From Candidatus Eiseniibacteriota bacterium (GTDB lineage: Bacteria > Eisenbacteria > RBG-16-71-46 > SZUA-252), in assembly GCA_005893275.1 (NCBI GenBank), contig VBOW01000020.1, positions 23,870-87,869 of the forward strand: 64,000 nucleotides of DNA. Reading direction: 5' to 3'. This document shows positions 33,674 through 64,000 of this stretch, one piece after another. The position numbers were made by a program, and so were the translations under genes. The notes under the pieces were generated by a model that had not been told where the DNA came from, made no database searches, and worked only from the letters and a program-made list of their open reading frames with translations. Position 1 is the first letter of the stretch; every line of letters starts with the position of its first letter.

Positions 33674-33677
33674 TCGC

Positions 33678-47149: not shown

Positions 47150-47243
47150 GATCGTGCTTGCGCCGGGTCCGGTTCCTCCCTAGCATCCGGGCTACCTCGC
47201 GCTTCACACCACCGCGGTCCCGCTCCCGGGGGAGAACACTGGG

Positions 47244-47933: not shown

Positions 47934-49101
47934 GGCGACCCTTTTCGGTGTCATCCTCTGCGCCGTCGTCGCGGGCTGTGCCGGAGGGCGCGGCGCAGGC
48001 CCCTCGATTCCCGAGGGGACGGTCGCGATCCCGGGGCTGCTCGCGGAGGCCGATTCGGCCGCCGCGCGGGGGAACGCGGCGGACGCGCGCAGCATCTACG
48101 CGCGCGCGGCGCGGGCGGCGGAGCGCTCGGGGGCGCGCCCGCTCGAGATCCGCGCGGAGCTGGGCGCGGGCCTCATGTCGCTCGCGCTCGCCGACGCCGA
48201 GTCCGCCCGGCGCTCCCTTCTGCGCGCGGTCGAATTGGATCCGAATAACGCGGCGGCGCACGTGGCGCTCGGGCGCTACCACGCCGCGATCCACCACTAC
48301 AAAGACGCCAAGGAGGAATTCGATCGCGCCGCGGCTCTGGACTCGCTGAGCGCGGAACCGCTCTATCGCTTGGGCCTTGCCTATATTGGGGCGGGGGAGA
48401 CGAAGCTCGCCGCCGAGGCGCTCACCCGCGCCCTGGGACGCGATCCGGGGCATGCCCCATCCCAAGAGGCTCTGAGCACCCTCTTGGATTCGCGCTATCT
48501 CGCCGCGGGCCTGCCGGCCGGCTACGGCGCGCTGCGCACCCATCCGAGCGTCTCCCGCGGGGAGCTGGGGGTGATGCTCGCCGCGGAGCTGGGCGCCGAT
48601 CCGGAGCGGCCGAGCTGGCGCGGCGCGAAGGACTATCCATCGGACACGGAGGAGGCGCGCGGTGCCTGGGGGGAGCGTTGGGTCCGGGTCTCGCTGGCAC
48701 GCGGATGGATTTCTCCTTTTCCCGACGGCTCCTATCATCTGGGCGATCCGGTCACGCGCGGAGCGCTCGCGCTCTTGATCGCGGACATCGAGAGGGGCTG
48801 GGCGCAGGGTGCGTCCGGGTCGCGGGCAGCCCCGTCGGGCGCGCGGGCGGAGGATCCGGCCGCGGCAGGAGGGCTCTCGACGCCCGATCCATTTCCCGAC
48901 CTTGGCACCCGCCACTACCTCTTCCGCCCTGCGCAGGAGGCGGTGCGGGTCGGCCTCCCGCTTCGTCCGGAAGGGCGCTTCGAGCCCTGGGCGTCGGTAA
49001 CCGGATCGGAGGCGCTCGCCGCGCTCAAGGGCCTCGCGCGGACGGTGGGTGTCGAGGCCGTTCTTCCGGGGGAACCGGGCAAGGAGGGCATGGTAAAATA
49101 G
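47926..49101 (+). CDS. Lipoprotein with TPR repeats and two C-terminal SLH-like domains
   Basis: Lipobox VVAGCAGG. TPR helices (ARGNAADARSIYARAARAAERSG...). SLH-like GWISPFPDGSYHLGDPVTRGALALLIADI and FPDLGTRHYLFRPAQEAV. ATG at 47926 overlaps the radC stop. Confidence 0.55.
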   Translation: MAKATLFGVILCAVVAGCAGGRGAGPSIPEGTVAIPGLLAEADSAAARGNAADARSIYARAARAAERSGARPLEIRAELGAGLMSLALADAESARRSLLRAVELDPNNAAAHVALGRYHAAIHHYKDAKEEFDRAAALDSLSAEPLYRLGLAYIGAGETKLAAEALTRALGRDPGHAPSQEALSTLLDSRYLAAGLPAGYGALRTHPSVSRGELGVMLAAELGADPERPSWRGAKDYPSDTEEARGAWGERWVRVSLARGWISPFPDGSYHLGDPVTRGALALLIADIERGWAQGASGSRAAPSGARAEDPAAAGGLSTPDPFPDLGTRHYLFRPAQEAVRVGLPLRPEGRFEPWASVTGSEALAALKGLARTVGVEAVLPGEPGKEGMVK

Positions 49102-49104
49102 GGC

Positions 49105-51924
49105 GTGACCCTCCCTCGCGCCGCTGCTTCCCCGCTGGTCATCGCGCTTTGCGCGATGGGGGGCCTTGCACCAGGGCAGGGGCGGGCGGGTGTTGACGCA
49201 TCTTCTTCGTTTGAAGGTACTTCCGCTTTAGCCTCTACCAAAGCCTACCCCCAGCCGAGCCTCGGCAGCGTGAGCCCTGTTCGCGCACGCGCGCCGTCGG
49301 CGCGCACCTATCGCAGCGGCCAGGCGAACCAGGCGGGCGACACCGTCTGGGTCTTCCGCGACAGCCTGGAGACCAGGTCCAGCCCCTCGAACGAGGGTGG
49401 CTGGACCCACCAGGACGCCTCGTTTCAGCCCGCCGCCTGGCACATCGACACGGTGTACGGCTGTGAGGGGCACTCCTTCTGGTGCGGCCGGATCGATTCG
49501 AGCTGGGTCAATGACGCGAATAGGCGCGGATACGACAACAGCTGGACGCAGATGCTGAGCAACTACGTGAATCTCTTGTCGGCGGCGAGCCCGGTGAAGA
49601 TCTCGTTCCGACACCAACTGGAAGCCGAATCAGGATTCGATTACGGGACCCTCGAGGTGCTCGATCTGGACGCCGGCTGGCTCCCCCTGAGGACCTGGAC
49701 AGGGTCGGTCCACGGCCAGAGCGGCGCGCCCTGCGATACGTTCACGATCCAGATCCCCGACTCGATTATGGCGAAATACAACCCCGTCCAGTTCCGGTTC
49801 GTCTTCACGAGCGATATCCAAGGGTCCGCCGCGGACGGCATCTCCGCGCCGGCAGATGGCTGGTCCGTGGACAACGTGACGGTGAAAGCGGGGACCACCG
49901 ACCTTCGATTCTTCGATGATTTCGAATCCGGCCCCGGAACCTGGACCGTATCGACCTTTCCCGCCGTGGGGGACAACTGGCGGATTCAGGCGAACGTCCC
50001 GGGGGAGCAGGTGTGCACGAGCAACACCAGCAAGGTCTGGACGGTGACCAGCCCTTCGACCGGGGCGCTCATCCCCCGGATGGACGACAAGCTGATCAGC
50101 CCGCCTGTCTTCGTGAACCGGGCCGACCAGGTGTTTGCCGCATTCGACGTCTACCGGAATCTGCCGCTTTTCTCCTGCTTTTACTACAACGTCAAGTTCC
50201 GCACGCGGAACGCGGGCGCGGCGTGGTCCCTGTGGAGCCAGTCCTCGAGCCAGATCTATTTCGGGACCGAGAAGGAATGGATGCGGCAGACGGTGGCCCT
50301 CCCGGGCGCCGCCGGCAAGGATTCGGTGGAGTTCATGTTGAACGTGAAGGATTACTCCCAGGTCTACTGCGACGGCGTCTCCACGCCCAGCGGGACCGCC
50401 GTCTATTTCGATAACCTGGCGCTCGGGGTCCGGGGGCTCGCCCCGCCGTCGATCCTCGTGTCGGAACAGGACCTGTTCCAGGACACGTTCAACACCGCCC
50501 CCTTCTGGGCGGACGACAACTTCAACTCCCCCGCCGGGGACAGCACGTCGGTCCGGCTCTCCGCGTCCCGCGGGCTCAAGCAGGCCACCTTCTTCTACAG
50601 CCTGAACGGCGGTTCCTTCGCGGGCCTCCCGCTCGCGCCCTTCGGCCCCTCGATCCCGGCCGCCTATTCGGCCGACGTTCCCGCGGGCTCCTACCCGCGG
50701 GGCACGCGGCTTCGATACTACTTCTCGGTAACCGATTCTCTCAACGAGACAGTCACGCTCCCGTCGGACGCGCTTGCGGCATCCCATTATTTCGACGCGA
50801 CCGTGCTGCCCGCGATCCAGGCCCCGTCCGCTGCCTGCGCGGGAGACACGGCCAAGGTGCTCTACGTGAACGCGTTCTCGGGACCGGACGGCGGAGCTTC
50901 CATGGATCAGGCTCTCACGGCGCTGGGCCTGCGCTTCGACCGCTACGACGTGAACGCAGCGGCGAACTCATTCGGCAACTCGCCCGGAGGCGGCACGCCG
51001 GGCCCGACGCGCACCTGGCCGGCCACGACGGCCGCCACGCTCGGAATGTACTCGGCGATCATCTGGGATGTCGGCGAGCGCTCTTCTTCCACCCTCACCC
51101 GGGAAGATCAGCAGCTCCTGGAAGCGTGGGTCAAGCGTCCCGGGAAGAATCGGGGGCTCCTGGCCGCGGGCGACAACCTCGCGTACGACCTCGTGGTCAA
51201 CGCGCAGGATATCGGCACCTTCCTCACCTGCACGCTCGGGACCACGTACGTCCGGGACATCTGGGAGAACACGCCCCAGGATTCGCTCACCCCGACCTTG
51301 GCGGGGGCGGCGGGAACCCGGATCACGTCCGAGCCCTTCCCGCTGGACGGACGATGCCCGTCGCTCAACCGATTCGACGCGCTGGCGACGTCCTCTTGCG
51401 CCGGGCCCAAGGCACGGGGTTGGATCGCGTATCCGAACGCGATGCTTGCTTCGATCGAGAAACGAGATTCCGTCGGCGTCGTCGCGGACTCCTCGCGCTC
51501 CGTCCTGCTCGGGTTCAGCCTGGCGGGCATTTCCAGCTCCACGCGGCGCAACCTGCTTCTCTACCGGACGATCGTCGGGGAGTTCGAGGTCCCGGGCTGT
51601 TACGTCGCGACGGGGGTCGAGGAAACGTCCGCGGAGGCCGCGTCGCCCACCGCGCGCCTTTTCGGGGCCGCGCCGAACCCGTTCAATCCACGGACGTCGA
51701 TCCGATTCACGCTCTCACGCCCCGCGCGCATCCGGCTCCTCATCTTCGACGTCTCGGGCGCCCGGGTCCGCAGCCTTGCCGACGGGATGCTTCCGGCCGG
51801 TGACCATCACATCACCTGGGATGGGAAGAACGACCGCGGGCGAGACCTGGCGAGCGGCGCCTACTTCTACCGGCTCGAGGCGGACCGGGAGGCCCAGGCC
51901 AAAAAGCTCATCCTCTTGCGCTGA
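49105..51924 (+). CDS. Large secreted protein with C-terminal FlgD-Ig-like / T9SS-type sorting domain
   Basis: C-terminal NPFNPRTSIRFTLSRPARIRLLIFDVSGARVRSLADGMLPAGDHHITWDGKNDRGRDLASGAYFYRLEA matches the TIGR04183/FlgD_ig family CTD. No catalytic domain recognised. Confidence 0.65.
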   Translation: MTLPRAAASPLVIALCAMGGLAPGQGRAGVDASSSFEGTSALASTKAYPQPSLGSVSPVRARAPSARTYRSGQANQAGDTVWVFRDSLETRSSPSNEGGWTHQDASFQPAAWHIDTVYGCEGHSFWCGRIDSSWVNDANRRGYDNSWTQMLSNYVNLLSAASPVKISFRHQLEAESGFDYGTLEVLDLDAGWLPLRTWTGSVHGQSGAPCDTFTIQIPDSIMAKYNPVQFRFVFTSDIQGSAADGISAPADGWSVDNVTVKAGTTDLRFFDDFESGPGTWTVSTFPAVGDNWRIQANVPGEQVCTSNTSKVWTVTSPSTGALIPRMDDKLISPPVFVNRADQVFAAFDVYRNLPLFSCFYYNVKFRTRNAGAAWSLWSQSSSQIYFGTEKEWMRQTVALPGAAGKDSVEFMLNVKDYSQVYCDGVSTPSGTAVYFDNLALGVRGLAPPSILVSEQDLFQDTFNTAPFWADDNFNSPAGDSTSVRLSASRGLKQATFFYSLNGGSFAGLPLAPFGPSIPAAYSADVPAGSYPRGTRLRYYFSVTDSLNETVTLPSDALAASHYFDATVLPAIQAPSAACAGDTAKVLYVNAFSGPDGGASMDQALTALGLRFDRYDVNAAANSFGNSPGGGTPGPTRTWPATTAATLGMYSAIIWDVGERSSSTLTREDQQLLEAWVKRPGKNRGLLAAGDNLAYDLVVNAQDIGTFLTCTLGTTYVRDIWENTPQDSLTPTLAGAAGTRITSEPFPLDGRCPSLNRFDALATSSCAGPKARGWIAYPNAMLASIEKRDSVGVVADSSRSVLLGFSLAGISSSTRRNLLLYRTIVGEFEVPGCYVATGVEETSAEAASPTARLFGAAPNPFNPRTSIRFTLSRPARIRLLIFDVSGARVRSLADGMLPAGDHHITWDGKNDRGRDLASGAYFYRLEADREAQAKKLILLR

Positions 51925-52090: not shown

Positions 52091-52126
52091 ACATTTGGAC
52101 GGATGCGTCCGGCCCCTGGCCGCGTG

Positions 52127-52162
52127 CGCCCCGCGGGTGTCTGCCTGCGGGGCGTTTATTTT
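52127..52162 (+). terminator. Rho-independent terminator (riboswitch expression platform)
   Basis: GC stem CCCCGCGGG/CCTGCGGGG (one G·U wobble) followed by CGTTTATTTT, ~10 nt upstream of the ribD SD GAGGAGG. Confidence 0.55.
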
Positions 52163-52173
52163 ATGAGGAGGTC

Positions 52174-53349
52174 ATGAATATCCGGGTCGCACCGATCGGC
52201 AAGGACTCCCGGGAGAAGGGGCCGTCCCGTCCCGTCTCGACGGCCGAAGAGAGCATGATGCGCGCGGCGATCCGGCTCGCGCGGCGAGGCATCGGCACGA
52301 CCCATCCCAATCCGCGCGTCGGAGCCTTGGTCCTTCGCGGCGGAGAAGTCGTGGGCCGGGGCTACCACGCGCGCGCCGGCGAGCCACACGCGGAGGTGCG
52401 GGCGCTCCAAGAAGCGGGGGCCCGTGCCCGAGGGGGGACGCTCGTCTCGACCCTGGAGCCCTGCGCGCACCAGGGCCGCACCCCGCCGTGCGTCGATGCG
52501 ATCCTTGGTTCCGGAGTTCGGCGGGTCGTGCTCGGCATGCGCGATCCGAACCCGCTCGTGGACGGACGCGGCGTGAGCAGTCTTCGGGCGGCGGGCATCG
52601 AGGTCGTCGAGGACGTGCTGAGCGCGGACTGCCGAGACCTGAATCTTCCGTATCTGAAGTTCCTCGCGACCGGCTTTCCGTGGGTGACGCTCAAATCGAT
52701 GGTGTCGCTCGACGGGCGGGTCGCGAGCGAGAGCGGCGATTCGCGGGGGTTGGGGGGAGCGGCGGAGCTCAAGCTGTGCCACAAGCTGCGCGCCGGCCAG
52801 GACGCGGTCCTGGTCGGGATCGGGACCGTGCTCGCCGATGACCCCGAGCTGACGGTTCGCCTCGCGCGGGGGAGGAGCCCGCTTCGGATCGTGCTCGACT
52901 CGCATCTCCGCATTCCGCTCGGTTCGCGGCTGGTCCAATCGGCCGCGTGGGTTCCGCTTTTGATCGCGACCGTGTCGGAGGATCGCGACCTGGGCGACGC
53001 CCTTGCCCGCCGCGGAGCCCGGATCTGGCGCTTCGAGGGCGATGGAACGGGGCGCGTGCCGCTGCGCCCGCTCTTCAAGCGGCTCGCGGGGGAGGGGGTG
53101 CTCTCCATCCTCGTGGAAGGGGGGCCAACGGTGCATACCGCCCTCCTGCGCGAGGGGCTCGCCGACCGCGTTGCGATCGGCCTGGCACCCCTCATCGTGG
53201 GCGGCACGAAGGCTCCGACCTGGACCCGGGACCTGGGACGCCCGCGCTTAGACGAGGCCTTGGAGGTCGACTCGCTCGTGATGCGGCGCGTGGGACGCGA
53301 TCTTTGGATCGAGGGGTCGCTCCGCACGCAGGGGCCCCGCGATGTTTAG
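52174..53349 (+). CDS. ribD: Bifunctional diaminohydroxyphosphoribosylaminopyrimidine deaminase / 5-amino-6-(5-phosphoribosylamino)uracil reductase
   Basis: HAEVRAL...EPCAHQGRTPPC is the CDA zinc motif, plus a C-terminal reductase domain. SD GAGGAGG lies 6 nt upstream of ATG 52174. Confidence 0.9.
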   Translation: MNIRVAPIGKDSREKGPSRPVSTAEESMMRAAIRLARRGIGTTHPNPRVGALVLRGGEVVGRGYHARAGEPHAEVRALQEAGARARGGTLVSTLEPCAHQGRTPPCVDAILGSGVRRVVLGMRDPNPLVDGRGVSSLRAAGIEVVEDVLSADCRDLNLPYLKFLATGFPWVTLKSMVSLDGRVASESGDSRGLGGAAELKLCHKLRAGQDAVLVGIGTVLADDPELTVRLARGRSPLRIVLDSHLRIPLGSRLVQSAAWVPLLIATVSEDRDLGDALARRGARIWRFEGDGTGRVPLRPLFKRLAGEGVLSILVEGGPTVHTALLREGLADRVAIGLAPLIVGGTKAPTWTRDLGRPRLDEALEVDSLVMRRVGRDLWIEGSLRTQGPRDV

Positions 53350-53980
53350 CGGCATCGTGGAGCGCATCGGGCGAGTCGAAAGGGTCGAGCGCACGCCGGA
53401 AGGCTCGGCTCGGCTGGCGATACGAGCCGGGTTCGGGACGCCGCCTCCGCCGGGGGCTAGCGTCGCGGTGAACGGCGTCTGCCTCACCGTCGAGAGCGCG
53501 CACGGCGACCTCATCCATGCCACGGCCGTGCCGGAAACGCTCCGCCAGACGACGCTGGGGAGGCTCTCGGCCGGCAGCCGGGTCAACCTCGAGCGCGCGC
53601 TCAGGGTCGGCGACGAGATCGGCGGGCATTGGGTGCAGGGACACGTGGACGCCGCGGCGAGGGTCGCCTCGATCGGGCGTACGGGAAGCGACGTGCTCCT
53701 CGCGGTGGAGATTCCCGGTGCGCTCCGACCGTACGTGGCCCCGAAGGGGTCCTTGGCGGTGGACGGAGTGAGCCTGACGGTCGCCGCGTGGGAGGAGCCT
53801 CACGCGACCGTGGCGCTCGTGCCCTACACGCTCGAGCACACCATCGCATCGGAATACCAAGAAGGGGGAATCGTGAACCTGGAGGTGGATATCCTGGCGC
53901 GATACCTCGAGCGCCTCATGGTGTCTCGGGGGATCGTCGCACCGTCCCGCCCCGCCGCGGCGGACGCGAGGCGGTCATGA
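53342..53980 (+). CDS. ribE: Riboflavin synthase
   Basis: [12 protein letters not shown]...[10 protein letters not shown]...[10 protein letters not shown] is the lumazine-binding repeat pair. Confidence 0.9.
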
Positions 53981-55305
53981 AGCGCGCGGGCTCGTTGCAC
54001 GGCCGCGCGGGTGGTCGCGATGCGCCCGCGGGGCGCGCCGAGGGATTCGCCGCGTCTCTCTCGACGATCGAAGAGGCGCTCCGAGATATCCAGGCGGGCA
54101 GGATGGTCGTGGTGGTGGACGACGAAGACCGCGAGAACGAGGGGGACTTCGTGATGGCCGCCGAGAAGACCACGTCCGCCGACGTCAACTTCATGGCGCG
54201 CGAGGCCCGCGGCCTGATCTGCGTCTCCATGACCAGCGGGAGGCTCGGCGCGCTGGGGCTATCGCTCATGGCGCCGATCAACACGGCGCGTTTCTCCACT
54301 CCGTTCACGGTCTCGGTCGATCTGCTTCGGGGCACGACCTCCGGTTCTTCGGCTCATGACCGCGCGCTCACAATTCGCGCGCTCGCCGATCCGAAGACAA
54401 AGCCCGAGGACTTGGCCCGGCCGGGGCACGTGTTCCCGCTCCGGGCTTTGGACGAGGGGGTCCTGAAGCGACCCGGGCACACCGAAGCGGCGCTCGATCT
54501 GGTGCGGCTCGCGGGATTGCGTCCGGCGGGGCTCCTCTGCGAGATCCTTTCGCCGGACGGGCGGATGGCGAGCGGTCATGAGCTGATCCGGATCGCCCGG
54601 CGCCACCGGCTCAAGCTCGTCACGATCCGCGATCTGATCCGCTACCGGTACCGCCACGAGCGCCACGTCAAGCGGGTCGCGTCCTCGCGGCTCCCGACGC
54701 GCTTCGGGAATTTCCGCGTGGTCGTTTACGAGAGCCTGGTGGATGGCCACCACCACGTCGCGCTCGTCAAGGGATCGGGCGGCGGCAAGCCGCGGCTCGT
54801 GAGGGTTCACTCCCAGTGCCTGACCGGAGACGTGTTCGGCTCGCTGCGGTGCGATTGCGGCGAGCAGATGGAAGCCGCCCTCGAGCGGATCGATCGCGAG
54901 GGCGCGGGCGCGTTCCTCTACATGCGCCAGGAGGGACGGGGCATCGGTCTCGCGAACAAGCTGCGAGCCTACGAGCTGCAAGACCTGGGGCTGGATACGG
55001 TCGAGGCGAATCTCAAGCTCGGATTCGCTCCCGACCTGCGCGATTACGGCGTGGCCGCGCAGATCCTGCGCGATCTGGGCTACGCGAGAGTCCGGCTCCT
55101 CACCAACAATCCGCGGAAGATCGATGCGCTCCGCGAGTACGGGATCGAGGTCGTCGCCCGGGAGCCGCTCGAGATCATACCGAACGCCGCCAATGCCCGT
55201 TACCTCGCGACGAAGCGTGAGCGGCTGGGGCATCTGCTTCACCATCCCGCTCTCGGAGGCGCCGCCCCGGCGCACACCAACGGAAAACGGGGAACCCGGG
55301 CGTGA
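53977..55305 (+). CDS. ribBA: Bifunctional 3,4-dihydroxy-2-butanone-4-phosphate synthase / GTP cyclohydrolase II
   Basis: DHBP synthase [41 protein letters not shown]...[15 protein letters not shown] overlap with ribE. Confidence 0.9.
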
Positions 55306-55367
55306 GCCCTGCGCGTCGCCCCGCGCCGGCGCGCCGTTCGCCACGGAGGGCTGCCGAGTTCCCGGAA

Positions 55368-55838
55368 GTGATCCAAGGCTCCCTCGACGGCGCGGGGCTC
55401 AGGATCGCGATCGTGGTCTCGCGGTTCAACGAGTTCGTCGGGAATCGACTCCTGGACGGCGCGCTCCGCGCCCTCGAGGGCCACGGAGTCCGGGCGCGCG
55501 ACACCGTCGTGATCAAGGTCCCGGGAGCTTTTGAGATCCCGCCCGTCGCGAGGCTCCTGGCGGATTCGGGTCGCCACGACTCCGTGATCTGCCTCGGCGC
55601 CGTGCTGCGGGGGGAGACGCCGCACTTCGATCGGGTCGCCGGAGAGGCTTCGCACGGGATCGCGCGCGCGTCGTTTGAAACCGGTGTGCCCGTGCTCTTC
55701 GGCGTTCTCACCGTCGATACCCTCGATCAGGCGCTCGACCGCTCGGGAGGGAAGCATGGGAACAAGGGCGCGGAGGTCGCGGAGGGCGCCATCGAGATGG
55801 CCAGGCTCGTGCGCGCGCTCGCCGCGAAACAGCGTTGA
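55368..55838 (+). CDS. ribH: 6,7-dimethyl-8-ribityllumazine synthase
   Basis: GLRIAIVVSRFNEFV...VPGAFEIP...VLRGETPHFD. GTG at 55368 gives a canonical N-terminus; the track ORF starts earlier at 55302. Confidence 0.88.
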   Translation: MIQGSLDGAGLRIAIVVSRFNEFVGNRLLDGALRALEGHGVRARDTVVIKVPGAFEIPPVARLLADSGRHDSVICLGAVLRGETPHFDRVAGEASHGIARASFETGVPVLFGVLTVDTLDQALDRSGGKHGNKGAEVAEGAIEMARLVRALAAKQR

Positions 55839-56254
55839 CCCGCCGGCGACAGGCGCGCGAGCTCGCCTTTCGGGCCGCGTACCAGGCGGACGTCACCGGG
55901 GATCCAATCGACCGCTGCCTCGAGGAGATTCTGGAGGACCTCGAACAAGCGGCGGATCCCGAGACCAAGGAATTCGCCTCCTCGCTCGTGTCCACGCTCG
56001 CGCGGCATCAGCCCGAAATCGACTCTGTGGTCTCCCGGATCGCCAAGAACTGGTCGCTCTCGCGCATGGCGGCCACCGATCGCTCGGTCATCCGGCTCGC
56101 CGCGGCGGAGCTTCTCTACCACGCCGAGGTGCCGGTGCGGGTTACGCTTGACGAAGCGATCGAAATCGCCAAGAAATACGGCATGGAAACGTCCGGCGCG
56201 TTCGTGAACGGTATCCTGGATCGCCTGGCCCACGACGTGCGGCCTCCTGGATGA
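55835..56254 (+). CDS. nusB: Transcription antitermination factor NusB
   Basis: ARELAFRAAYQADV...VIRLAAAELLY...VNGILD. Classic ribH-nusB adjacency. Confidence 0.9.
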   Translation: MTRRRQARELAFRAAYQADVTGDPIDRCLEEILEDLEQAADPETKEFASSLVSTLARHQPEIDSVVSRIAKNWSLSRMAATDRSVIRLAAAELLYHAEVPVRVTLDEAIEIAKKYGMETSGAFVNGILDRLAHDVRPPG

Positions 56255-56976
56255 AGACGGCTCTTCTCTCGGACGTTCACGCCAATCTCGAGGCGCTGGA
56301 GGCGGTCCTCAACGCCGTGGACGAGCGCGGCGCGGGCCGGATCCTCTGCCTGGGCGACGCCGTCGGCTACGGCGCGAGCCCGAACGAGTGTCTCAAGCTC
56401 ATCCGCGAGCGTTGCCAGGTGGTTCTCTTGGGAAATCACGATTCCGCGGCGAGCGGCGGACCGGAAGCCGCGCGATTCAACCCGAACGCGAAAGCGGCCG
56501 CGCTCTGGACCGCCAAGACCCTGACGCCCGATCACCGCGATTACCTGCGCGGGCTCTCTCCGTGCGAGAGAGTCGAGCCGTATTTCTACACTCACGCATC
56601 GCCCGCGGCACCGCGTGATTGGGAATACATCTTCGATCGCTTCGACGCCGAGCCCCAGTTTCAATTCTTCACCGAGCCCGCGTGCTTCATCGGCCACACC
56701 CACCAGCCCGCCATCTTCGAGCGCTCCGACTCGGGGTGCGTCTTCTTGCCGCCCACGCGCCTCCTGTTCCATCCCGCCTACCGCTACATCGTGAACGTCG
56801 GGAGCGTTGGACAGCCCCGGGACCACGATCCGAGGGCCTGCTTCGTCCTCCTCAACGAGTCCGCGGGGGACATCGAATTCGTTCGTGTGCCCTATGATAT
56901 CGAGGCCGCGCAGGGGAAGATCCGGGCCGCGCGGCTGCCGGCGGTGCTGGCCTCGCGGCTCGCGACCGGAGAGTAG
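56251..56976 (+). CDS. Metallophosphoesterase (calcineurin-like, YfcE/Icc family)
   Basis: LSDVHANLEAL...CLGDAVGYG...GNHD are phosphoesterase motifs. Confidence 0.8.
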   Translation: MKTALLSDVHANLEALEAVLNAVDERGAGRILCLGDAVGYGASPNECLKLIRERCQVVLLGNHDSAASGGPEAARFNPNAKAAALWTAKTLTPDHRDYLRGLSPCERVEPYFYTHASPAAPRDWEYIFDRFDAEPQFQFFTEPACFIGHTHQPAIFERSDSGCVFLPPTRLLFHPAYRYIVNVGSVGQPRDHDPRACFVLLNESAGDIEFVRVPYDIEAAQGKIRAARLPAVLASRLATGE

Positions 56977-56981
56977 GCGGC

Positions 56982-57788
56982 GTGCGAACGTCCACCGAAG
57001 CCCACTGGTCGCGCTTCTGGCGCGAGCGCTCCGAGATCGAAGACGTGTACCCGACGGAAGGCCGTGTGGTGGAACAGATCCTCGGGGAGGGGCCGGTCGC
57101 GGGGAGGCTGGTTCTCGAGGTCGGCGCCGGATCGGGGCGCGACAGCGTCGCCCTGGCCGAGGCGGGGGCGACGGCGGTTCTCCTCGACTATTCGGCGCCT
57201 TCCCTCGAAGTCGCGCGGGGCGTGGCCTCGCGAGCGGGCCGGAGCGTGCATCTGGTTCGCGCGGACGCGCTCCGGATGCCCTTTCGGGACGGCTCCTTCC
57301 ACGTCGTGTTCCACCAGGGGCTTCTCGAGCACTTCCGCGATCCGCTGCCGCTCCTGCGTGAGAACGTTCGCGCGCTCGGGGACCGCGGCATCCTCCTTGT
57401 GGATGTGCCGCAGCGTTTCCATCTCTACACGGTCCTCAAGCACCTTCTGATCGCGGTCGGAAGATGGTTCGCCGGATGGGAGACGGAATTCACGATCGAC
57501 GAGCTGGAGCGGCTCCTGGGCGCGGCGGGGGTCACGGTCACGCGGAGATACGGCAACTGGATGGTGCCCGGTCTGTTCTATCGTTCGCTCCGCCTGGTCC
57601 TTCTTCGCTCGCGTGTCGCGCGCCTCCCGCTGTATCCACCGCCTGTTCCCATCCTGTCGAAGCTCGCGGGCTCGTTTCGCGAGCGTTTCCGCCGCACCCG
57701 GGTGTCCTTCTATACCTACTTCGTCATCGGCGTTCTGGGTCGAAAAGAGACGGCGGATCCGCCCCGCTCCGGTGTACCTATCGGGTGA
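56982..57788 (+). CDS. Class I SAM-dependent methyltransferase
   Basis: LVLEVGAGSGRDSVALAE (motif I) ...FHVVFHQGLLEH. Confidence 0.75.
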   Translation: MRTSTEAHWSRFWRERSEIEDVYPTEGRVVEQILGEGPVAGRLVLEVGAGSGRDSVALAEAGATAVLLDYSAPSLEVARGVASRAGRSVHLVRADALRMPFRDGSFHVVFHQGLLEHFRDPLPLLRENVRALGDRGILLVDVPQRFHLYTVLKHLLIAVGRWFAGWETEFTIDELERLLGAAGVTVTRRYGNWMVPGLFYRSLRLVLLRSRVARLPLYPPPVPILSKLAGSFRERFRRTRVSFYTYFVIGVLGRKETADPPRSGVPIG

Positions 57789-58897
57789 AGCTGCTCGCGT
57801 TCAACTGGCGTGATCCCAAGCATCCGGAGGCGGGCGGCGCCGAGCTTCACCTTGTGGAAATCCTGAGCCGGGCGGTCCAGGACGGCGACCAAGTGACCTG
57901 GCTTGCCGAGGCCTTCCCAGGCTCGGAGCCCGAGGAGGAGCACCGGGGCATCCGCATTCTCCGGAGGGGGTCGTGGTACAATGCGCACCTTGCTCTGGCC
58001 CAGCTCTATCGACGGAGGCTTCGGGGAGAGCGGTTTGATCTTGTCCTGGAAGACATCAACAAAGTTCCATTCTTCACGCCGTGGTACGTCCGCGCGCCCG
58101 TGCTCGCCGTGGTGCCTCACCTCTTCGGCGCCACCGTGTTCCGGGAAGCGTCGCCCGCCGTCGGCGCTCTGGTCTGGGCACACGAGAGTTTGATCCCGCT
58201 CGTGTACCGCGATGTCCCCTTCCTCGCGATCTCCGAGAGCACCCGTGACGACCTCGTCCGCCGCGGCCTGCGCCGCGAAAACATCTCGGTGGTTCGCTGC
58301 GGCCTGGATCAGAGCGGCTACACGGTGACCGTCCCACCGGGGGACCGGACGGAGCCGGTTGTGGTTTTCGTGGGCCGGCTTCGCAAGTACAAGGGGGCGC
58401 AATACCTCATCCGGGCGTTCCCGGACGTGCTGCGGGCGGTGCCGGAGGCTCGGCTCCGGATCGTGGGGGACGGCCCCTACCGGGAGAACCTGGAACGACT
58501 CTCTCGCTCCCTGAGGATTCGGGAGAAGGTCGAGTTCCTCGGAGCGCTCAGCCAGCGGGACAAGGTGGCCGCGCTGAACCGGGCCCAGGTCGCCGCCGCC
58601 CCCTCGCCCAAAGAGGGTTGGGGGCTCACGGTGATCGAGGCGAACGCGTGCGGCGCGCCGGTCGTGGCGAGCAAGAGCCCCGGTTTGGTCGAGTCGGTCC
58701 GCGATGGCGAGACGGGTCTCCTGGTTCCGCACGGTGACGCCGGCGCGCTCGCACGCGCCACGATCCGCCTTCTCACCGACCCGAACCTTCGCCTTTCCAT
58801 GGCGGGTGCCGGGCTCCGCTGGGCCCATGGGTTCACCTGGGACCGCTGCTACCGCGAGAGCAGGGCGGTGATCGCGCGCGCGGCGGGGGCCGCGTGA
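57785..58897 (+). CDS. Glycosyltransferase family 4
   Basis: C-terminal GT-B motif EGWGLTVIEANACGAPVVASKSPGLVESVRDGETGLLV. GTG at 57785 overlaps the methyltransferase stop. Confidence 0.8.
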   Translation: MKLLAFNWRDPKHPEAGGAELHLVEILSRAVQDGDQVTWLAEAFPGSEPEEEHRGIRILRRGSWYNAHLALAQLYRRRLRGERFDLVLEDINKVPFFTPWYVRAPVLAVVPHLFGATVFREASPAVGALVWAHESLIPLVYRDVPFLAISESTRDDLVRRGLRRENISVVRCGLDQSGYTVTVPPGDRTEPVVVFVGRLRKYKGAQYLIRAFPDVLRAVPEARLRIVGDGPYRENLERLSRSLRIREKVEFLGALSQRDKVAALNRAQVAAAPSPKEGWGLTVIEANACGAPVVASKSPGLVESVRDGETGLLVPHGDAGALARATIRLLTDPNLRLSMAGAGLRWAHGFTWDRCYRESRAVIARAAGAA

Positions 58898-59943
58898 CCG
58901 GCGCGACTTCGGGGGTTTTTCGAAAGCTCAAGCTGCCGCTCATCGCGCTCAAGATCATGTTGAGCTTCGCCCTGTTCGCCTATGTGATCGCCAAGGTCTC
59001 GCCGCGGAACGTTTGGGTCACGATGAAACACGCGGACCCGAAGCTGCTCGCGGCCGCCGCGGGGTTATTCCTCGTCTCGAGCCTCATCGGGAGCTGGCTC
59101 TGGGCGAGGCTCTTACGCGCCCAAGGTGTCTCGATCCCGTATGCCAAGGCGGCCTCGTATTATTTTGTGGGGCTTTTCTTCAACAACTTCCTGCCATCGA
59201 ACATCGGCGGCGACATCGCGCGAATCTCCGATGCCGCGAAACACGCCGATCACGTGAGCCCCGTCTTCTCCGCGACGGTCATGGATCGCTTGATCGGCAT
59301 TCTGGCGATCGGGCTCCTGGCCGTGGTGGCCTCGGTCGCGGTGATCGACCGTCTGCATCTCTACGCGATCTACTGGGCCATCCTGATCGTCTTTCTCGTG
59401 GCGGCCGCGTTCTTCGCGAGCATCTTCAACCGGAATATCCTCGAGGCCTTCGAGCGTCCCTTCCGCGCGATCGGCGCCCGCAAGATCGAGCGCGGGATCG
59501 CCCGTCTGATGGACGACCTCCACGGATTCCGGAGCGAGCGGGGCGCGCTTCTGGCCGCGTTCGCCGCTTCCACTCTGGTCCAGATCAGCCGGATCTACGT
59601 CCATTCCCTGGTGGGGCTCGCGCTTGGAGTGCGAATCTCCCTCGCGTACTACTTCCTGTTCGTGCCCGTGCTGGCCGCGCTCATCTCGCTTCCAATCTCG
59701 CTGAACGGAATCGGCGTGCGTGAAGGGGCCGCGGTCGTGCTGTTCCGGCTTGCCGGGCTGACGCGCGAGGAGGCGTTCAGCATTCCGTTCCTCACGTACA
59801 TTCTGTCGGTACTGATCAGCCTGCTTGGAGGGCTCATCTTCATCTCGCGACCGCCGCGGCGCGCGCTCGGGAAGCATCTCCAACGCCGAAAGCTCGCCCG
59901 TACCGGTGGGGGCGGCGCCTCCCCCGGAGAGGGCCGGGCATGA
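58894..59943 (+). CDS. Flippase-like UPF0104/LPG-synthase-TM-type membrane protein
   Basis: IALKIMLSFALFAYVIAKV...YFVGLFFNNFLPSNIGGDIAR belongs to the TIGR00374 family. Polytopic. Confidence 0.7.
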   Translation: MTGATSGVFRKLKLPLIALKIMLSFALFAYVIAKVSPRNVWVTMKHADPKLLAAAAGLFLVSSLIGSWLWARLLRAQGVSIPYAKAASYYFVGLFFNNFLPSNIGGDIARISDAAKHADHVSPVFSATVMDRLIGILAIGLLAVVASVAVIDRLHLYAIYWAILIVFLVAAAFFASIFNRNILEAFERPFRAIGARKIERGIARLMDDLHGFRSERGALLAAFAASTLVQISRIYVHSLVGLALGVRISLAYYFLFVPVLAALISLPISLNGIGVREGAAVVLFRLAGLTREEAFSIPFLTYILSVLISLLGGLIFISRPPRRALGKHLQRRKLARTGGGGASPGEGRA

Positions 59944-62549
59944 CTTCCGGAAAGCGCTGGCACCAGGTCGCCGCGGCGCTCGCGTTCGGCTTGCCTCTCT
60001 TCGTCTATCTCTGCACGCTCACCCGGACGGTGCCGTTCTGGGATTCCGGCGAGTTCATCGCCACGTCCTATATTCTGGGTCTGCCGCACCCGCCGGGAAA
60101 CCCGGTCTACACGATGCTCGGTCGGATCATGAGCTTTCTCCCGATCGAGACCGTCGCATGGCGCGTGAATTTCATGAGCGCGCTGGCGTCCGCCCTCACG
60201 GCGCTCTTCACCTTCCTGATTACGGTCCGCTCGCTTCGACGCTGGTTCATGGACCAGGCCCCGACTCCCGCGAGGGAGCTCGCCTGCGAGGTGGGCGGGC
60301 TCGTCGCCGCGTTCTTCATCGCGTTCTCGAATTCCTTCTGGGACAGCGCGATCGAGGCCGAGGTCTACTCGCTTTCGTCGTTCCTGGTGGTGTTCTCGAT
60401 CTGGCTCGCCTTCAACTGGTGGGATCATCTGGGGGAAACCAACAACGACCGCCTGCTCGTCCTGATCGTCTACATCCTGTCGATCTCCGCCGCGGTGCAC
60501 CTCGGCACGATCCTGGTCGCGCCCGGGCTCCTCCTGCTCTTCGCGATGAACCGGACCCGTTACTTCACCACGGGACGGTTCTGGGCCTCGGCGGCCCTGC
60601 TCGGCGGGTTCATCCTCTTTCTCTGGTACAACGAGTTTTCGGCGGACGTCGACGTGCCGCTCCCGCTCATCCTCATCATCCTTGCGCTGCTCCTCGTCGT
60701 GTACGCGCTGAATTCCAAGAAGCTGGTGAAAAACAATCTCTTCACGTGGTGGACGATCGCGCTGGTCGTAGGGTTCACGGTGCAGCTCTTTCTGCTGGTG
60801 CGGAGCCAGCAGCACCCCGCCGTGAACGAGGGCGCGCCGGAGACATTCAACACGTGGAAGGACTACCTGCTGCGGAAGCAATACGGCCCTTCGAACCCGT
60901 TCGAACGCCGCGCGGATCTTTGGTATCAGATCAATCACATGTATTTCCGGTACGTCGGGATGCAGTTTGCGCTCACCAGGGGGCTGGGGCCGTTTGGACC
61001 CGATTCCTTCTGGGTGATGGCCGTGAACGCGATCCCGTATCTCCTGTTGGCTCTCGGCGCCTATTGGAACTGGAAGCGGGACAAGAAGACCTTCTGGTTT
61101 TTCCTGACGCAGAACTTCGTCATGGGACCGGCACTCATCTTTTATCTCAACTTCACGGACCACGAGGTTCGGGAGCGCGACTACTTCTTCACCAATTCCT
61201 ACCACTTTCTCGCGATCTGGATGGGGATGGGCGCGGCCGGGGTCGTGAAGTGGCTCGCGAGCGCTTTCGAGCCGGCGAAGGCGCCGGCCCCGGCCGGGGT
61301 TCCGTCCGGGGCCCCGGCTCCCGCGGGAGCAACCGGAGGCTTCATGCCCTACCGGGCGGGGGTGGCGCTCGGGGCCGCGGCGCTGATCGGAATCTCGCTC
61401 CTTCCGATGAAGGAAGGGTGGTACGAACACGACCGGTCGCGTTTCTACATCGCCCACGATTACGCCTACAACATGCTCACGCCCTTGGAACCGGGCGCGA
61501 TCGTGATGACGAACGGCGACAACGACACGTTCCCGCTCTGGTATATCCAGGAAGTGGAACACGTGCGGAGGGACGTGCGGGTCGTGAATCTGAGCCTGCT
61601 CAACACGCCCTGGTACATCAAGCAGCTCCGCGATCAGGAGCCGCGCGTTCCGTTCTCGTTCACCAACGCGCAGCTCGACGCGCTCCAGCCCTATCAGGAG
61701 GAGAAGAGCGGCAGGATCATCTGGGTCAAAGACCAGGCCGTGACGGACATGGTCCGGGCCAACCAGTGGAAGCGGCCCGTCTATTTGGCGGTCACGGTGC
61801 CCGAGCAGCTCGGGTTCGACAAGCACCTCATGCTGGAGGGACTCGTCTTCCGCATCTACCCGAAGGAGGTCGGGGAGCATAGCGTCGACGCCGGGAAAAC
61901 GCTCAACAATCTCTACCACGTGTTCCGGTATGTGGGCCTGCTCGACAAGAACCGCAACTACGACTCGACCGTGTACAAGGACGACAACGCCTACAAGCTC
62001 GTGCAGAACTACAGCGCGGCCCACGTCCAGGTTGCCTACGAGATGCAGAAGGCCGGGCAGGGCAAGGACGCGATCTCCCTGCTGCGGGACGCGGTCAAGA
62101 TGACCCCCGATTTTCCGGGGCTCCTCGAGTACCTTGGGAAATCCTACCAGGACACGGGGGACACCGCCGAAGCGGAGCGCGTCTTCACGCAAGCCCTGCG
62201 GCGTTTCCCCAACTCGGCCGAGTTCTATTTTCACCTCGGCGTGATCCACTGGCAGAAGGGGCACAAGGAGCGCCGCGCCGATCTGGTCGACCAGGGGCTT
62301 CAGGAGCTCCGGCGCGCGTGCTCGCTCGACCAGCGCTACTTCGACTGGTTCGGCGGCCTCTTCAGCGCGCTCTGGCTCGAGGGGCATCACGAGGAGGCCG
62401 TGGACGTGCTGCGGAGCTGGACGCGCGCGCATCCCGAAGATCCGCAGGGGGCCGCGTGGCTCCGGAATTACGAGGACTCGCTGAAGGTGCTCTCGGCGGC
62501 CCCTCCACGCGGGGGCGCGGGCGGGCGCGCGGCGGGCGGGAGGCGCTGA
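59940..62549 (+). CDS. DUF2723-family GT-C glycosyltransferase-like membrane protein (PMT/TMEM260-like) with C-terminal TPR repeats
   Basis: First-loop acidic motif TRTVPFWDSGEFIATSYILGLPHPPGNPVY. More than 10 TM helices. C-terminal TPR-like helices (AEAERVFTQALRRFPNSAEFYFHLGVIHWQKGH...). Confidence 0.7.
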   Translation: MTSGKRWHQVAAALAFGLPLFVYLCTLTRTVPFWDSGEFIATSYILGLPHPPGNPVYTMLGRIMSFLPIETVAWRVNFMSALASALTALFTFLITVRSLRRWFMDQAPTPARELACEVGGLVAAFFIAFSNSFWDSAIEAEVYSLSSFLVVFSIWLAFNWWDHLGETNNDRLLVLIVYILSISAAVHLGTILVAPGLLLLFAMNRTRYFTTGRFWASAALLGGFILFLWYNEFSADVDVPLPLILIILALLLVVYALNSKKLVKNNLFTWWTIALVVGFTVQLFLLVRSQQHPAVNEGAPETFNTWKDYLLRKQYGPSNPFERRADLWYQINHMYFRYVGMQFALTRGLGPFGPDSFWVMAVNAIPYLLLALGAYWNWKRDKKTFWFFLTQNFVMGPALIFYLNFTDHEVRERDYFFTNSYHFLAIWMGMGAAGVVKWLASAFEPAKAPAPAGVPSGAPAPAGATGGFMPYRAGVALGAAALIGISLLPMKEGWYEHDRSRFYIAHDYAYNMLTPLEPGAIVMTNGDNDTFPLWYIQEVEHVRRDVRVVNLSLLNTPWYIKQLRDQEPRVPFSFTNAQLDALQPYQEEKSGRIIWVKDQAVTDMVRANQWKRPVYLAVTVPEQLGFDKHLMLEGLVFRIYPKEVGEHSVDAGKTLNNLYHVFRYVGLLDKNRNYDSTVYKDDNAYKLVQNYSAAHVQVAYEMQKAGQGKDAISLLRDAVKMTPDFPGLLEYLGKSYQDTGDTAEAERVFTQALRRFPNSAEFYFHLGVIHWQKGHKERRADLVDQGLQELRRACSLDQRYFDWFGGLFSALWLEGHHEEAVDVLRSWTRAHPEDPQGAAWLRNYEDSLKVLSAAPPRGGAGGRAAGGRR

Positions 62550-63484
62550 TGCGCGCGCTCGTGACCGGTGTCGCGGGATTCCTCGGCTCGACGCTGGCGG
62601 AGACACTCCGGAGCTCGGGGTTCGACGTGGTGGGGGTGGACGCGTTCACGCCGAACTACGAGGCCGCGAGGAAACGCGCGAACCTCGAAGGGCTGCTCCG
62701 CGATCCGGGATTTCGGTTCGTCGAGGCGGATCTGCGAAACGTCGCGCTCGAACCCTTGCTCGACGGGGTGACTCACGTCGCGCACCTGGCGGCGCTTCCG
62801 GGGGTGAGATCCAGCTGGGGGGACGCATTTCGCGCCTATGCCGAACACAACATCGTCGTCACCCAGCGGCTGCTCGACGCCCTGCGCGGTCGGACGGTCG
62901 AGCGCGTCGCGGTCGCGTCGAGCTCCTCCGTCTATGGCGTGCCGACCCGCTTTCCGACGCCGGAGGATGAGCCCCGGCGGCCCATCTCCCCGTACGGCGT
63001 GACCAAGCTCGCCACCGAAGCGCTTGTCCACGCGTATCGGCACGAGCAGGGGTTGCCGGCCGTCGCGCTCCGCTACTTCACGGTGTACGGCCCCCGGCAG
63101 CGGCCCGACATGGGGTTTCACCGATTTTTCGAGGCGTGCCGCCGCGGAGAGCCGGTGACCATCTACGGCGACGGCGCCCAGACGAGGGACTTCACCTTCG
63201 TCGAGGACGCGGTTTCGGCCACCGTCGCGAGCCTGACCCGCCCCGCCGAGGAGCTGGTCTACAATGTCGGCGGAGGGCATCGCGTGACGCTCCGCGAGGT
63301 GCTCGATCAGATCGAACGTCTGGTCGGCCGCCCGATGCAGCGCCGCCACATCGAGCCCCAGCACGGGGATCCGCGCGACACCTCGGCCGACACGAGACTC
63401 GCGCGGCGCGATCTGGGATACGAGCCGCGTACCGCTCTGGAGCGGGGTCTCGAACGCCAATGGGAATGGCAACGGAACAGGTGA
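62549..63484 (+). CDS. NAD-dependent epimerase/dehydratase (extended SDR; UDP-sugar 4-epimerase/decarboxylase-like)
   Basis: MRALVTGVAGFLGSTLAE (Rossmann) ...SPYGVTKLATE (YxxxK). The ATG overlaps the upstream stop (TGATG). Confidence 0.85.
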   Translation: MRALVTGVAGFLGSTLAETLRSSGFDVVGVDAFTPNYEAARKRANLEGLLRDPGFRFVEADLRNVALEPLLDGVTHVAHLAALPGVRSSWGDAFRAYAEHNIVVTQRLLDALRGRTVERVAVASSSSVYGVPTRFPTPEDEPRRPISPYGVTKLATEALVHAYRHEQGLPAVALRYFTVYGPRQRPDMGFHRFFEACRRGEPVTIYGDGAQTRDFTFVEDAVSATVASLTRPAEELVYNVGGGHRVTLREVLDQIERLVGRPMQRRHIEPQHGDPRDTSADTRLARRDLGYEPRTALERGLERQWEWQRNR

Positions 63485-64000
63485 TGGAGAAGGAGTCGTC
63501 GCTGGGGAAGCCGTCGTACGCCGTGGAGATCACGGCATTGATTCCCGTTTACGACGAGGCGGAGAATCTGAAACCGCTCCTCGAGAAGCTGACGGCGGAC
63601 CTGGCCGCCCTGCGCAAGCCGTACGAGATCCTGGTCGTCGATGACGGCAGCACCGACGGCACGATCGACCGGCTCCGGGAGCTACATCGCTGCATCCCGC
63701 ATCTTCGCGTGGTCTCGTTCCGGCGAAACTACGGCAAGTCGGCCGCTCTATCGGTCGGGTTCGCCGAGGCGCGCGGCCGTCATCTCGTGACGCTCGACGG
63801 GGATCTCCAGGACGATTCCGCGGAGATCGGACCCTTGCTTCGAAAGCTCGAGGAGGGCTATGACCTAGTCTCGGGCTGGAAACAGAAGAGGAAGGACCCG
63901 ATCACGAAGACGATTCCTTCCAGGCTCTTCAACGCGGTGACCTCCTCGATGACCGGGGTCAGGCTCCACGACATGAACTGCGGGCTCAAGGCCTACCGCG
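63484..64000 (+). CDS. GT2 polyprenyl-phosphate sugar synthase-like glycosyltransferase (GtrB/ArnC/DPM1 family), 3' end truncated by window edge
   Basis: ITALIPVYDEAENL...ILVVDDGSTDGT...LDGDLQDD. It has no stop within the window, so it is absent from the ORF track. ATG at 63484 overlaps the epimerase stop. Confidence 0.8.
   Translation, partial: MEKESSLGKPSYAVEITALIPVYDEAENLKPLLEKLTADLAALRKPYEILVVDDGSTDGTIDRLRELHRCIPHLRVVSFRRNYGKSAALSVGFAEARGRHLVTLDGDLQDDSAEIGPLLRKLEEGYDLVSGWKQKRKDPITKTIPSRLFNAVTSSMTGVRLHDMNCGLKAYR

Follow-up and report, generated by a model that had tools for sequence, protein, structure and literature searches.

What does a bacterial relative of a human O-mannosyltransferase transfer, and to what? 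The question is raised by a 64,000-nucleotide (nt) stretch of Candidatus Eiseniibacteriota DNA (contig VBOW01000020.1, positions 23,870 to 87,869; hereafter the window), which ends in seven plus-strand genes, g1 to g7 (56251-64000), centred on g5, an 869-amino acid (aa) DUF2723 membrane protein. A reading made from the letters alone (the sequence-only reading) had proposed that a DPM1-like enzyme makes a lipid-linked sugar and that a GT-C protein bearing tetratricopeptide repeats (TPRs) transfers it to protein. All seven gene models hold at their coordinates, and the domain calls were all confirmed by Pfam and NCBIfam. The window contains the first 7.7 kb, or the 5' third, of an island that has 18 genes, spans ~23 kb from nusB to mraZ in the division-cell-wall cluster and continues ~15.6 kb beyond the window end. 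We read the island past position 64000 from soil-metagenome contigs with an identical g5 (L001, L088); the 869-aa protein is identical to the NCBI entry 'DUF2723 domain-containing protein [Candidatus Eisenbacteria bacterium]', present on several such contigs. On the evidence of the gene order, of the domains and folds assigned, and of the conserved catalytic residues and gene neighbourhoods, we favour, at about an even chance, a reading in which the island serves extracytoplasmic glycosylation from a polyprenyl-phosphate-linked sugar via a TMEM260-type GT-C, with protein Ser/Thr as the favoured acceptor.

The central gene and its key sites are as follows, numbered against human TMEM260.

59940-62549, plus strand: g5, TMEM260-like GT-C glycosyltransferase, 869 aa (PF11028, E = 2.7e-49)
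60036-60056, plus strand: FWDSGEF in the first periplasmic loop, residues 33-39; D35 corresponds to D52 (donor-sugar binding)
60087-60089, plus strand: H50, corresponding to H67
60873-60884, plus strand: RKQY (REEY in human) in the donor-loading loop; R312 corresponds to R264 (phosphate) and Y315 to Y267 (sugar)
61164-61184, plus strand: EVRERDY; R413 corresponds to R355 (transmembrane helix 10, sugar contact)
61509-61532, plus strand: TNGDNDTF in the Rossmann-like periplasmic domain; D527 corresponds to D441, the catalytic base
61983-62495, plus strand: C-terminal TPR domain, residues ~682-852, nine helices

By all testable defining features, g5 is a member of the TMEM260 family (CAZy GT117). 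It matches PF11028 over residues 35-206 with 167.8 bits against a cutoff of 24.2, also carries PF28495 in precomputed annotation, and matches several Pfam TPR families at residues ~690-850. Human TMEM260 (9RQL/9RQM/9RQN) is its only non-TPR solved relative by sequence (profile E = 5e-42), aligning in two blocks, the transmembrane (TM) core and the luminal domain. The AlphaFold2 model, given 34 homologues as input, is confident (pLDDT 86.6, pTM 0.83) and contains a TM core of ~13 helices with the GT-C fold, followed by an alpha/beta domain of five strands (~498-680) and by nine helices of TPR type (682-852). The five beta-strands lie at 521-639 with flanking helices, as in the TMEM260 Rl domain. 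Thus, the profile, the solved relative and the model all bear out the earlier call of a DUF2723/GT-C protein with TPRs. No match of g5 to PF02366 or PF13231 (PMT/PMT_2, ArnT-type) or to MIR was found in Pfam at E<=0.01, and its similarity to PMT is at the fold level only.

Cryo-EM of TMEM260 describes a GT-C 'wrist' of 11 TM helices, a Rossmann-like 'palm' and TPR 'fingers', in which an Asn ladder of the C-terminal TPR domain holds the acceptor peptide (bioRxiv 10.64898/2026.03.17.711096). In the same work, mutagenesis showed that D52, H67, R264, Y267, R355 and D441 are required; the first-loop Asp binds the donor and D441 in the luminal domain is the catalytic base. FWDSGEF had been described in the sequence-only reading as a PMT-like acidic motif. 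Its position in the first loop stands, and its role has to be revised: D35 would bind donor, and the base would be D527.

We assessed conservation in 82 homologues from 80 species (27-80% identity). D35 and H50 were matched to their human counterparts by both HMMER and MAFFT, and each is present in 81 of the 82 homologues, the one exception being a gap. R312 and Y315 occur in all 82; their mapping comes from MAFFT only (with human and vertebrate TMEM260 fragments) and lies outside the HMMER local alignment. R413 and D527 are likewise found in 82/82, and HMMER aligns the region around D527 (residues 498-572) with TMEM260 412-486. Because the motifs containing R413 and D527 served as search patterns, the invariance of these two residues is partly due to ascertainment; D35, H50, R312 and Y315 lie outside both patterns. 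All six residues essential by TMEM260 mutagenesis therefore map to positions that are 99-100% conserved, which shows that bacterial relatives keep the complete TMEM260 catalytic apparatus.

In the reaction we propose, the membrane core of g5 would bind a polyprenyl-phosphate sugar through D35, H50, R312, Y315 and R413, and D527 would act as base in an inverting transfer to a hydroxyl held by the periplasmic Rossmann-like and TPR domains. By analogy with TMEM260, which O-mannosylates IPT domains, the hydroxyl would belong to Ser/Thr of extended secreted or periplasmic polypeptides. We favour protein Ser/Thr because the domain architecture with which TMEM260 grips peptide is retained and the base sits in the soluble domain; protein O-glycosylation by g5 is thus proposed from homology only. 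The two enzymes share PF11028 and PF28495, the order GT-C core, Rossmann-like domain and TPR, the six key residues and presumably the donor class, a polyprenyl-monophosphate sugar. They differ in that g5 is ~20-25% identical to TMEM260 over the two alignable blocks, has ~13 rather than 11 TM helices and nine rather than five TPR helices, belongs to a bacterial periplasmic setting with undecaprenyl-type lipids, and is encoded beside a uronate epimerase and an ArnC-like GT2.

These two neighbours are candidates for the donor side.

62549-63484, plus strand: g6, short-chain dehydrogenase/reductase (SDR), probable UDP-glucuronate 4-epimerase (UDP-GlcA <-> UDP-GalA; GlcA, glucuronic acid; GalA, galacturonic acid), 311 aa (Epimerase PF01370, E = 2.2e-55)
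63484-64000 (window end), plus strand: g7, ArnC/GtrB-type GT2, 172 aa in the window and 319 aa in full (L001:13545-14504) (PF00535, E = 5.7e-27)

g6 matches B. cereus UGAepi (6zl6, 3.7e-74) and MoeE5 (6kv9, 3.2e-65) from end to end. It retains Y149, T178 and R185 within an identical RYFTVYGPRQRPDM block, with SSS in place of T126/S127/S128. In UDP-GlcA 4-epimerases, T178 holds the carboxylate of GlcA and R185 that of GalA (R185 role, PMC12338863). g6 scores under the NCBIfam GalE and RmlB cutoffs. The sequence-only reading had expected a pentose or deoxy sugar from this gene; that expectation was not borne out, as g6 is nearest to UDP-GlcA 4-epimerases and relatives of dTDP-glucose dehydratase and UXS score far lower. 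Thus, g6 is probably a UDP-GlcA 4-epimerase that would convert UDP-GlcA to UDP-GalA, and the sugar indicated is galacturonic acid.

For g7, the best NCBIfam models of the window fragment are ArnC (1.8e-31) and PgfS (1e-27). The full-length protein matches the ArnC model at 9e-51 (positions 8-294 of 316), PgfS at 6e-39 and, under cutoff, AglJ at 1.6e-21; among structures, it matches ArnC (3e-46), GtrB (5ekp, 1e-35) and dolichol-phosphate mannose synthase (DPMS, 2e-14). We considered a processive, cellulose-synthase-like GT2 and rejected it: g7 aligns end to end with ArnC and GtrB and has its TM helices at the C terminus (245-263 and 280-298), and the processive synthases PgaC and NodC match only its first ~110 residues. 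By these alignments g7 is a non-processive polyprenyl-phosphate GT2 of the ArnC/GtrB clade, as the sequence-only reading had it, and it would attach a sugar to polyprenyl phosphate on the cytoplasmic side of the membrane. Our best guess for the product of the g6/g7 branch, by comparison with Rhizobium LpsL/RgtE, is polyprenyl-phosphate-galacturonate.

The ArnC/ArnT and Rhizobium LpsL/RgtE/RgtA-D systems likewise place an ArnC-type GT2 with C-terminal TM helices beside a nucleotide-sugar SDR and use a GT-C at the periplasmic face. In Rhizobium, LpsL and RgtE synthesize dodecaprenyl-phosphate-GalA for lipopolysaccharide (LPS), and the epimerase and GT2 of the island form a similar pair. An Arn pathway for 4-amino-4-deoxy-L-arabinose was rejected. 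Two findings speak against ArnC orthology for g7. Its score, 172.7 bits, is far under the equivalog cutoff of 529, and the rest of the Arn set is lacking: homologues of ArnA, ArnB, ArnD, ArnE and ArnF are missing, and the island genes include no aminotransferase, formyltransferase, deformylase or ArnT-family gene. Unlike ArnT, g5 lies outside the ArnT/PMT_2 family and has a TPR domain.

The resemblance of g6 and g7 to LpsL and RgtE also speaks for an explanation with the same chemistry and donor and another acceptor, in which g5, on the periplasmic side, decorates a glycan or glycolipid of the envelope with mannose (Man) or GalA branches: LPS/lipid A, lipoglycan, or lipid-linked or polymerised polysaccharide. 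Precedents for such acceptors are ArnT, Rhizobium RgtA-D, YfhO, GtrC, mycobacterial PimE/Mpt and ALG3/9/12. We regard a glycan or lipid acceptor as somewhat unlikely. g5 has the entire three-domain architecture of TMEM260, with its base in the soluble domain and with the TPR 'fingers' that grip peptide in TMEM260, whereas the characterised GT-Cs directed to glycans and lipids (ArnT, Rgt, YfhO, Mpt) do not have such an arrangement, and the ArnT/PMT_2 Pfam models miss g5.

The downstream part of the island offers a second possible donor. We extended the contig, as the sequence-only reading had suggested, and found more GT4 and GT2 genes, a second GT-C, a polyprenol monophosphomannose (PPM) synthase and a fusion protein, up to mraZ. 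After g7, the gene order is:

GT4
GT2
GT4 (minus strand)
TuaH-like GT4
YfhO-like second GT-C, 810 aa, L001:18949-21381 (~68888-71320 in window numbering), directly upstream of the PPM synthase
233-aa GT2 (the PPM synthase)
645-aa GT2 fusion
732-aa beta-propeller protein
FemAB/GNAT-like protein
two GT4s
mraZ-rsmH

The 233-aa GT2, ~9 kb downstream, matches the Pyrococcus Dol-P-Man synthase (5mlz, 9e-35), is annotated by NCBI as 'polyprenol monophosphomannose synthase' and also matches the AglJ model. Judged by these matches, it is the island's closest analogue of DPM1 and would make polyprenyl-phosphate-mannose. This strengthens the earlier proposal of a DPM1-like enzyme paired with a TPR-bearing GT-C, since a DPMS/Ppm1-like synthase is co-localised with the GT-C in several phyla; this synthase, g7 or both may feed g5. 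A similar pairing is found in Actinobacteria, where the bacterial DPM1-like synthase Ppm1 and the GT-C Pmt (GT39) mannosylate secreted proteins. The island differs in that its GT-C is TMEM260-like, unmatched by PF02366/PF13231 and devoid of MIR domains, in that its host is a diderm of the FCB (Fibrobacterota-Chlorobi-Bacteroidota) group, and in that it has additional glycosyltransferases and a second donor pathway.

The 810-aa GT-C-like protein is of uncertain family: Pfam YfhO matches it weakly (1.8e-07) and over no more than the last ~60 residues. In the 645-aa protein, which is best described as a GT2::phosphoglycosyltransferase-like fusion, a GT2 is joined to a WbaP-type CoA_binding_3 region; a Bac_transf part could be recognised in the L026 orthologue alone. 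The wealth of GT2 and GT4 genes together with this fusion adds to the case for an envelope glycan or lipid acceptor.

It also bears on a further explanation, which we consider improbable, that g5 is an O-oligosaccharyltransferase. The glycan would be begun on polyprenyl phosphate by g7 or by the phosphoglycosyltransferase fusion, extended by GT4s and GT2s, methylated by g2, flipped by g4 and transferred by g5 to protein, and the YfhO-like GT-C and PPM synthase would add the last mannose outside, as in Haloferax Agl. The Haloferax volcanii Agl pathway (AglJ/G/I/E, AglP, AglB, AglD/AglR/AglS) shares its logic with the island: a GT2 that initiates on polyprenyl monophosphate, further glycosyltransferases, uronic acids, a methyltransferase, two GT-Cs and a separate Dol-P-Man branch. 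The Haloferax pathway differs in being archaeal and N-linked with an AglB-type oligosaccharyltransferase (OST), and the g7 match to AglJ is weak. Whole-oligosaccharide transfer would account for the two adjacent sets, g5-g6-g7 and YfhO-like/PPM synthase, and for the tight methyltransferase-GT4-g5 linkage across phyla, and both g7 and the 233-aa GT2 match AglJ. Against it, the TMEM260 donor is a monosaccharide whose contacting residues are conserved in g5, the PPM synthase accompanies g5 without a YfhO-like gene in nine loci, and neither WWDxG nor DxD motifs of the OST type were identified.

Returning to the window, the four genes upstream of g5 comprise:

56251-56976, plus strand: g1, calcineurin-like metallophosphoesterase, 241 aa (Metallophos_2, 3.2e-14; Metallophos, 7.5e-11)
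56982-57788, plus strand: g2, class-I methyltransferase dependent on S-adenosylmethionine, 268 aa (Methyltransf_11, 6.1e-18)
57785-58897, plus strand: g3, GT4 (GT-B) cytoplasmic glycosyltransferase, 370 aa (Glycos_transf_1, 2.2e-44)
58894-59943, plus strand: g4, polytopic membrane protein of the MprF-flippase-like family, 349 aa (PF03706, LPG_synthase_TM, 1.6e-38; TIGR00374, 6.1e-20)

The best solved relative of g2 is a D-glucose O-methyltransferase (6uv6, 5e-10), so g2 is possibly a sugar O-methyltransferase. g3 has as its best solved relatives PimB' (3oka, 2e-23), MshA and PimA. PimB' and PimA are mannosyltransferases of phosphatidylinositol mannoside (PIM) synthesis, and PIM/lipomannan synthesis likewise unites cytoplasmic GT4s, a polyprenyl-phosphate-Man synthase and GT-C enzymes, both of which fit a glycan or lipid acceptor. 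Assignment of g3 as BshA or MshA is unlikely, as the match is confined to the C-terminal domain and the window has a BshC-BshA pair at another place. g4 exceeds the cutoffs of both PF03706 and the TIGR00374 'flippase-like' model and has ~8 hydrophobic segments. It is a candidate translocator that, by family membership, may carry the lipid-linked sugar across the membrane.

Three-component systems in which a lipid-linked sugar is made inside and used outside are well established (PMC11127046). GtrA/GtrB/GtrC and CsbB/GtcA/YfhO of that type resemble the island in combining a GT2 polyprenyl-phosphate-sugar synthase, a flippase and a GT-C, and a YfhO-like GT-C lies downstream here. The island differs in having a GT-C of a family new for such systems and a PF03706 MprF-like protein instead of a small flippase; no GtrA/GtcA/ArnEF-type flippase was found among the island genes, and g4 (PF03706/TIGR00374) occupies that place.

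How widely is this arrangement conserved? A scan of one genome per species, with the EVRERDY and TNGDNDTF motifs as peptide-pattern query, returned at least 598 species genomes with g5 relatives, all in FCB-group phyla: Eisenbacteria, Latescibacterota, Zixibacteria, Cloacimonadota, Marinimicrobia, KSB1, Gemmatimonadota, Ignavibacteria, Chlorobi, Bacteroidota, Fibrobacterota and WOR-3. One relative belongs to the green sulfur bacterium Prosthecochloris ethylica (L068). HMMER over 1.84 billion cluster representatives gave 15,912 matches at E<=1e-3, of which 1,150 reached E<=1e-30; the names of cluster members pointed to no cultured taxa. Neighbours of g5 were counted in the 80 best loci.

GT4 (g3-like) adjoining g5: 25/80 loci, on the strand of g5 in every case, with a median gap of 20 nt, in all three contexts described below; the most persistent neighbour
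Methyltransferase (g2-like) beside g5: 18/80 loci, in all three contexts
Generic GT2 near g5: 17/80 loci
Flippase-like protein (g4-like) near g5: 14/80 loci
PPM synthase within 10 kb of g5: 13/80 loci, 55-62% identical across unrelated phyla
ArnC-like GT2 near g5: 12/80 loci
SDR near g5: 12/80 loci

At least one polyprenyl-phosphate GT2 lies within 10 kb of g5 in 19 of these loci, and g1 is kept beside nusB in eight, only in Eisenbacteria and Latescibacterota. The steadiest neighbours across phyla are the methyltransferase-GT4 pair, the mannose synthase and the flippase-like protein. Among Eisenbacteria loci, the order g5-g6-g7 is kept down to 35% identity.

The orthologues of g5 occupy three housekeeping contexts, rib-nusB, ValRS-DUF4139-RecG and LepA-LepB-LepB-HemW, and the nusB-GT-C adjacency also occurs in Zixibacteria, Latescibacterota and Fibrobacterota loci. 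These contexts, together with the well-covered loci that have no glyco neighbour (19 of 44) and the continuous overlap chain from the rib/nusB genes, would fit an adjacency that is mostly incidental: g5 would be a housekeeping FCB envelope enzyme with its donor pathway elsewhere, and the glycosyltransferase genes around it, located between nusB and the division-cell-wall cluster by chance, would serve the synthesis of an unrelated polysaccharide. We judge this very unlikely, given that a GT4 lies directly beside g5 in 25 loci, on the same strand in every case and in all three contexts, that the g5-g6-g7 order holds to such low identity, and that the PPM synthase recurs at most 10 kb away in unrelated phyla.

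Tandem TMEM260-like paralogues occur in Cytophagia-like, KSB1 and other phyla (L019:10001-15379, L022:7233-12601, L031:584-5939). At most one of them can lack D35/H50, because both residues are present in 81 of the 82 family members. The tandem copies suggest a diversified donor or acceptor, and they count in favour of whole-oligosaccharide transfer. In nine Bacteroidota/Ignavibacteria-type loci (L040, L045, L046, L052, L054, L055, L060, L065 and L081), the GT-C gene is preceded on its strand by LepA, a pair of signal peptidase I genes and a HemW-like radical-SAM gene. This proximity to signal peptidases is suggestive of an enzyme acting on translocating polypeptides and may be coincidence. 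In an Eisenbacteria metagenome-assembled genome (L010:13498-14392, a locus at 40% identity), the ArnC-like GT2 match is split into two overlapping pieces, which suggests a frameshift or an assembly error.

The island genes are closely packed with each other and with the housekeeping genes upstream.

nusB/g1, g2/g3, g3/g4 and g4/g5: 4-nt overlaps (ATGA/GTGA)
g1/g2: 5-nt gap
g5/g6 and g6/g7: 1-nt overlaps (TGATG)

The sequence-only reading called all seven genes translationally coupled; the overlap chain begins further upstream. In ribD-ribE-ribBA-ribH-nusB (52174-56254), overlaps of 4-8 nt lead directly into g1, whose start overlaps the nusB stop. The sole strong terminator-like hairpin (52126-52155; 13-bp stem with 10 GC pairs and a T-run) lies just upstream of ribD. 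The glyco genes thus appear to be co-transcribed with the riboflavin and nusB genes. Because the overlap chain already starts in ribD-nusB, coupling alone does not prove a shared function.

Several observations weigh against the reading we favour. The operon begins among housekeeping rib-nusB genes, and nearly half of the well-covered loci have no glyco-gene neighbour at all. The most persistent partners of g5 are a cytoplasmic GT4 and a methyltransferase, which a simple transfer of one sugar to protein does not explain, and the island holds ~10 further GT2/GT4 genes, a second GT-C and the GT2::phosphoglycosyltransferase-like fusion, a content typical of lipid-linked oligosaccharide or polysaccharide synthesis. 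Within g5, the base is surrounded by NGDND rather than the RGDLP of TMEM260, and a regex search of the window ORFs found no IPT-type sequon. g4 gave no significant match in a sequence search against the PDB and has no solved or characterised close relative. The literature searched (DUF2723, GT117, bacterial TMEM260) holds no experiment on, or functional characterisation of, any bacterial family member, in line with the earlier statement that the bacterial homologues are uncharacterised. The GT4-methyltransferase partners, the many cytoplasmic glycosyltransferases and the fusion must act on a lipid-linked intermediate before flipping; therefore, the glycan/lipid-acceptor and whole-oligosaccharide explanations remain serious beside transfer to protein Ser/Thr, which we continue to favour.

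The O-mannosyltransferase activity of human TMEM260 came to light only in 2023, and a structure followed in 2026 (bioRxiv 10.64898/2026.03.17.711096); bacterial relatives were mentioned by Larsen et al. 2023 just as 'distant homologs in bacteria'. Databases already record this homology, and the family occurs widely rather than in this window alone. The system differs from known ones in using a GT-C family uncharacterised in bacteria, and a 'DUF' becomes a concrete hypothesis testable by knockout. The locus may stand for a previously unseen type of glycosylation of bacterial proteins or envelopes, and it has a bearing on how the animal enzyme arose. For the general O-glycosylation of Bacteroidota, a 2022 paper (PMC8729774) still listed as unknown both the O-oligosaccharyltransferase and the glycosyltransferases of the core glycan; the literature searched contained no later identification of the former. 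If the acceptors are proteins, our findings may bear on this missing transferase. That the TMEM260-like/TPR enzyme and its methyltransferase-GT4, flippase-like and PPM-synthase partners form the core of an ancient FCB-wide protein O-glycosylation, the enzyme then being, or being closely related to, the Bacteroidota transferase, is an idea we hold as improbable.

Two large secreted proteins flank or lie inside the island. The 732-aa Reg_prop beta-propeller protein (L088:12692-14890, ~74020-76218 in window numbering) has a signal peptide, and its C-terminal 'YLYPNPSR...' resembles, by eye, a sorting domain of the type IX secretion system (T9SS). A 939-aa protein at 49105-51924 of the window ends in a FlgD_ig domain. 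Speculatively, both could be cell-surface cargo or acceptors. A few kb upstream of the island (44219-49101), a 976-aa SurA-like protein, unusually long and with parvulin peptidyl-prolyl isomerase domains, is followed by a 403-aa TPR protein; the two look like periplasmic chaperone-type genes. GC content falls to 62% at 60001-62000, over the membrane domain of g5, against ~67% for the window, with negative AT skew there; this probably reflects the codon composition of a membrane protein, not foreign DNA. Lastly, a BshC-like gene followed by a BshA-like GT4 (~32213-34847) suggests bacillithiol biosynthesis in this Eisenbacteria genome, apparently with no connection to the island.

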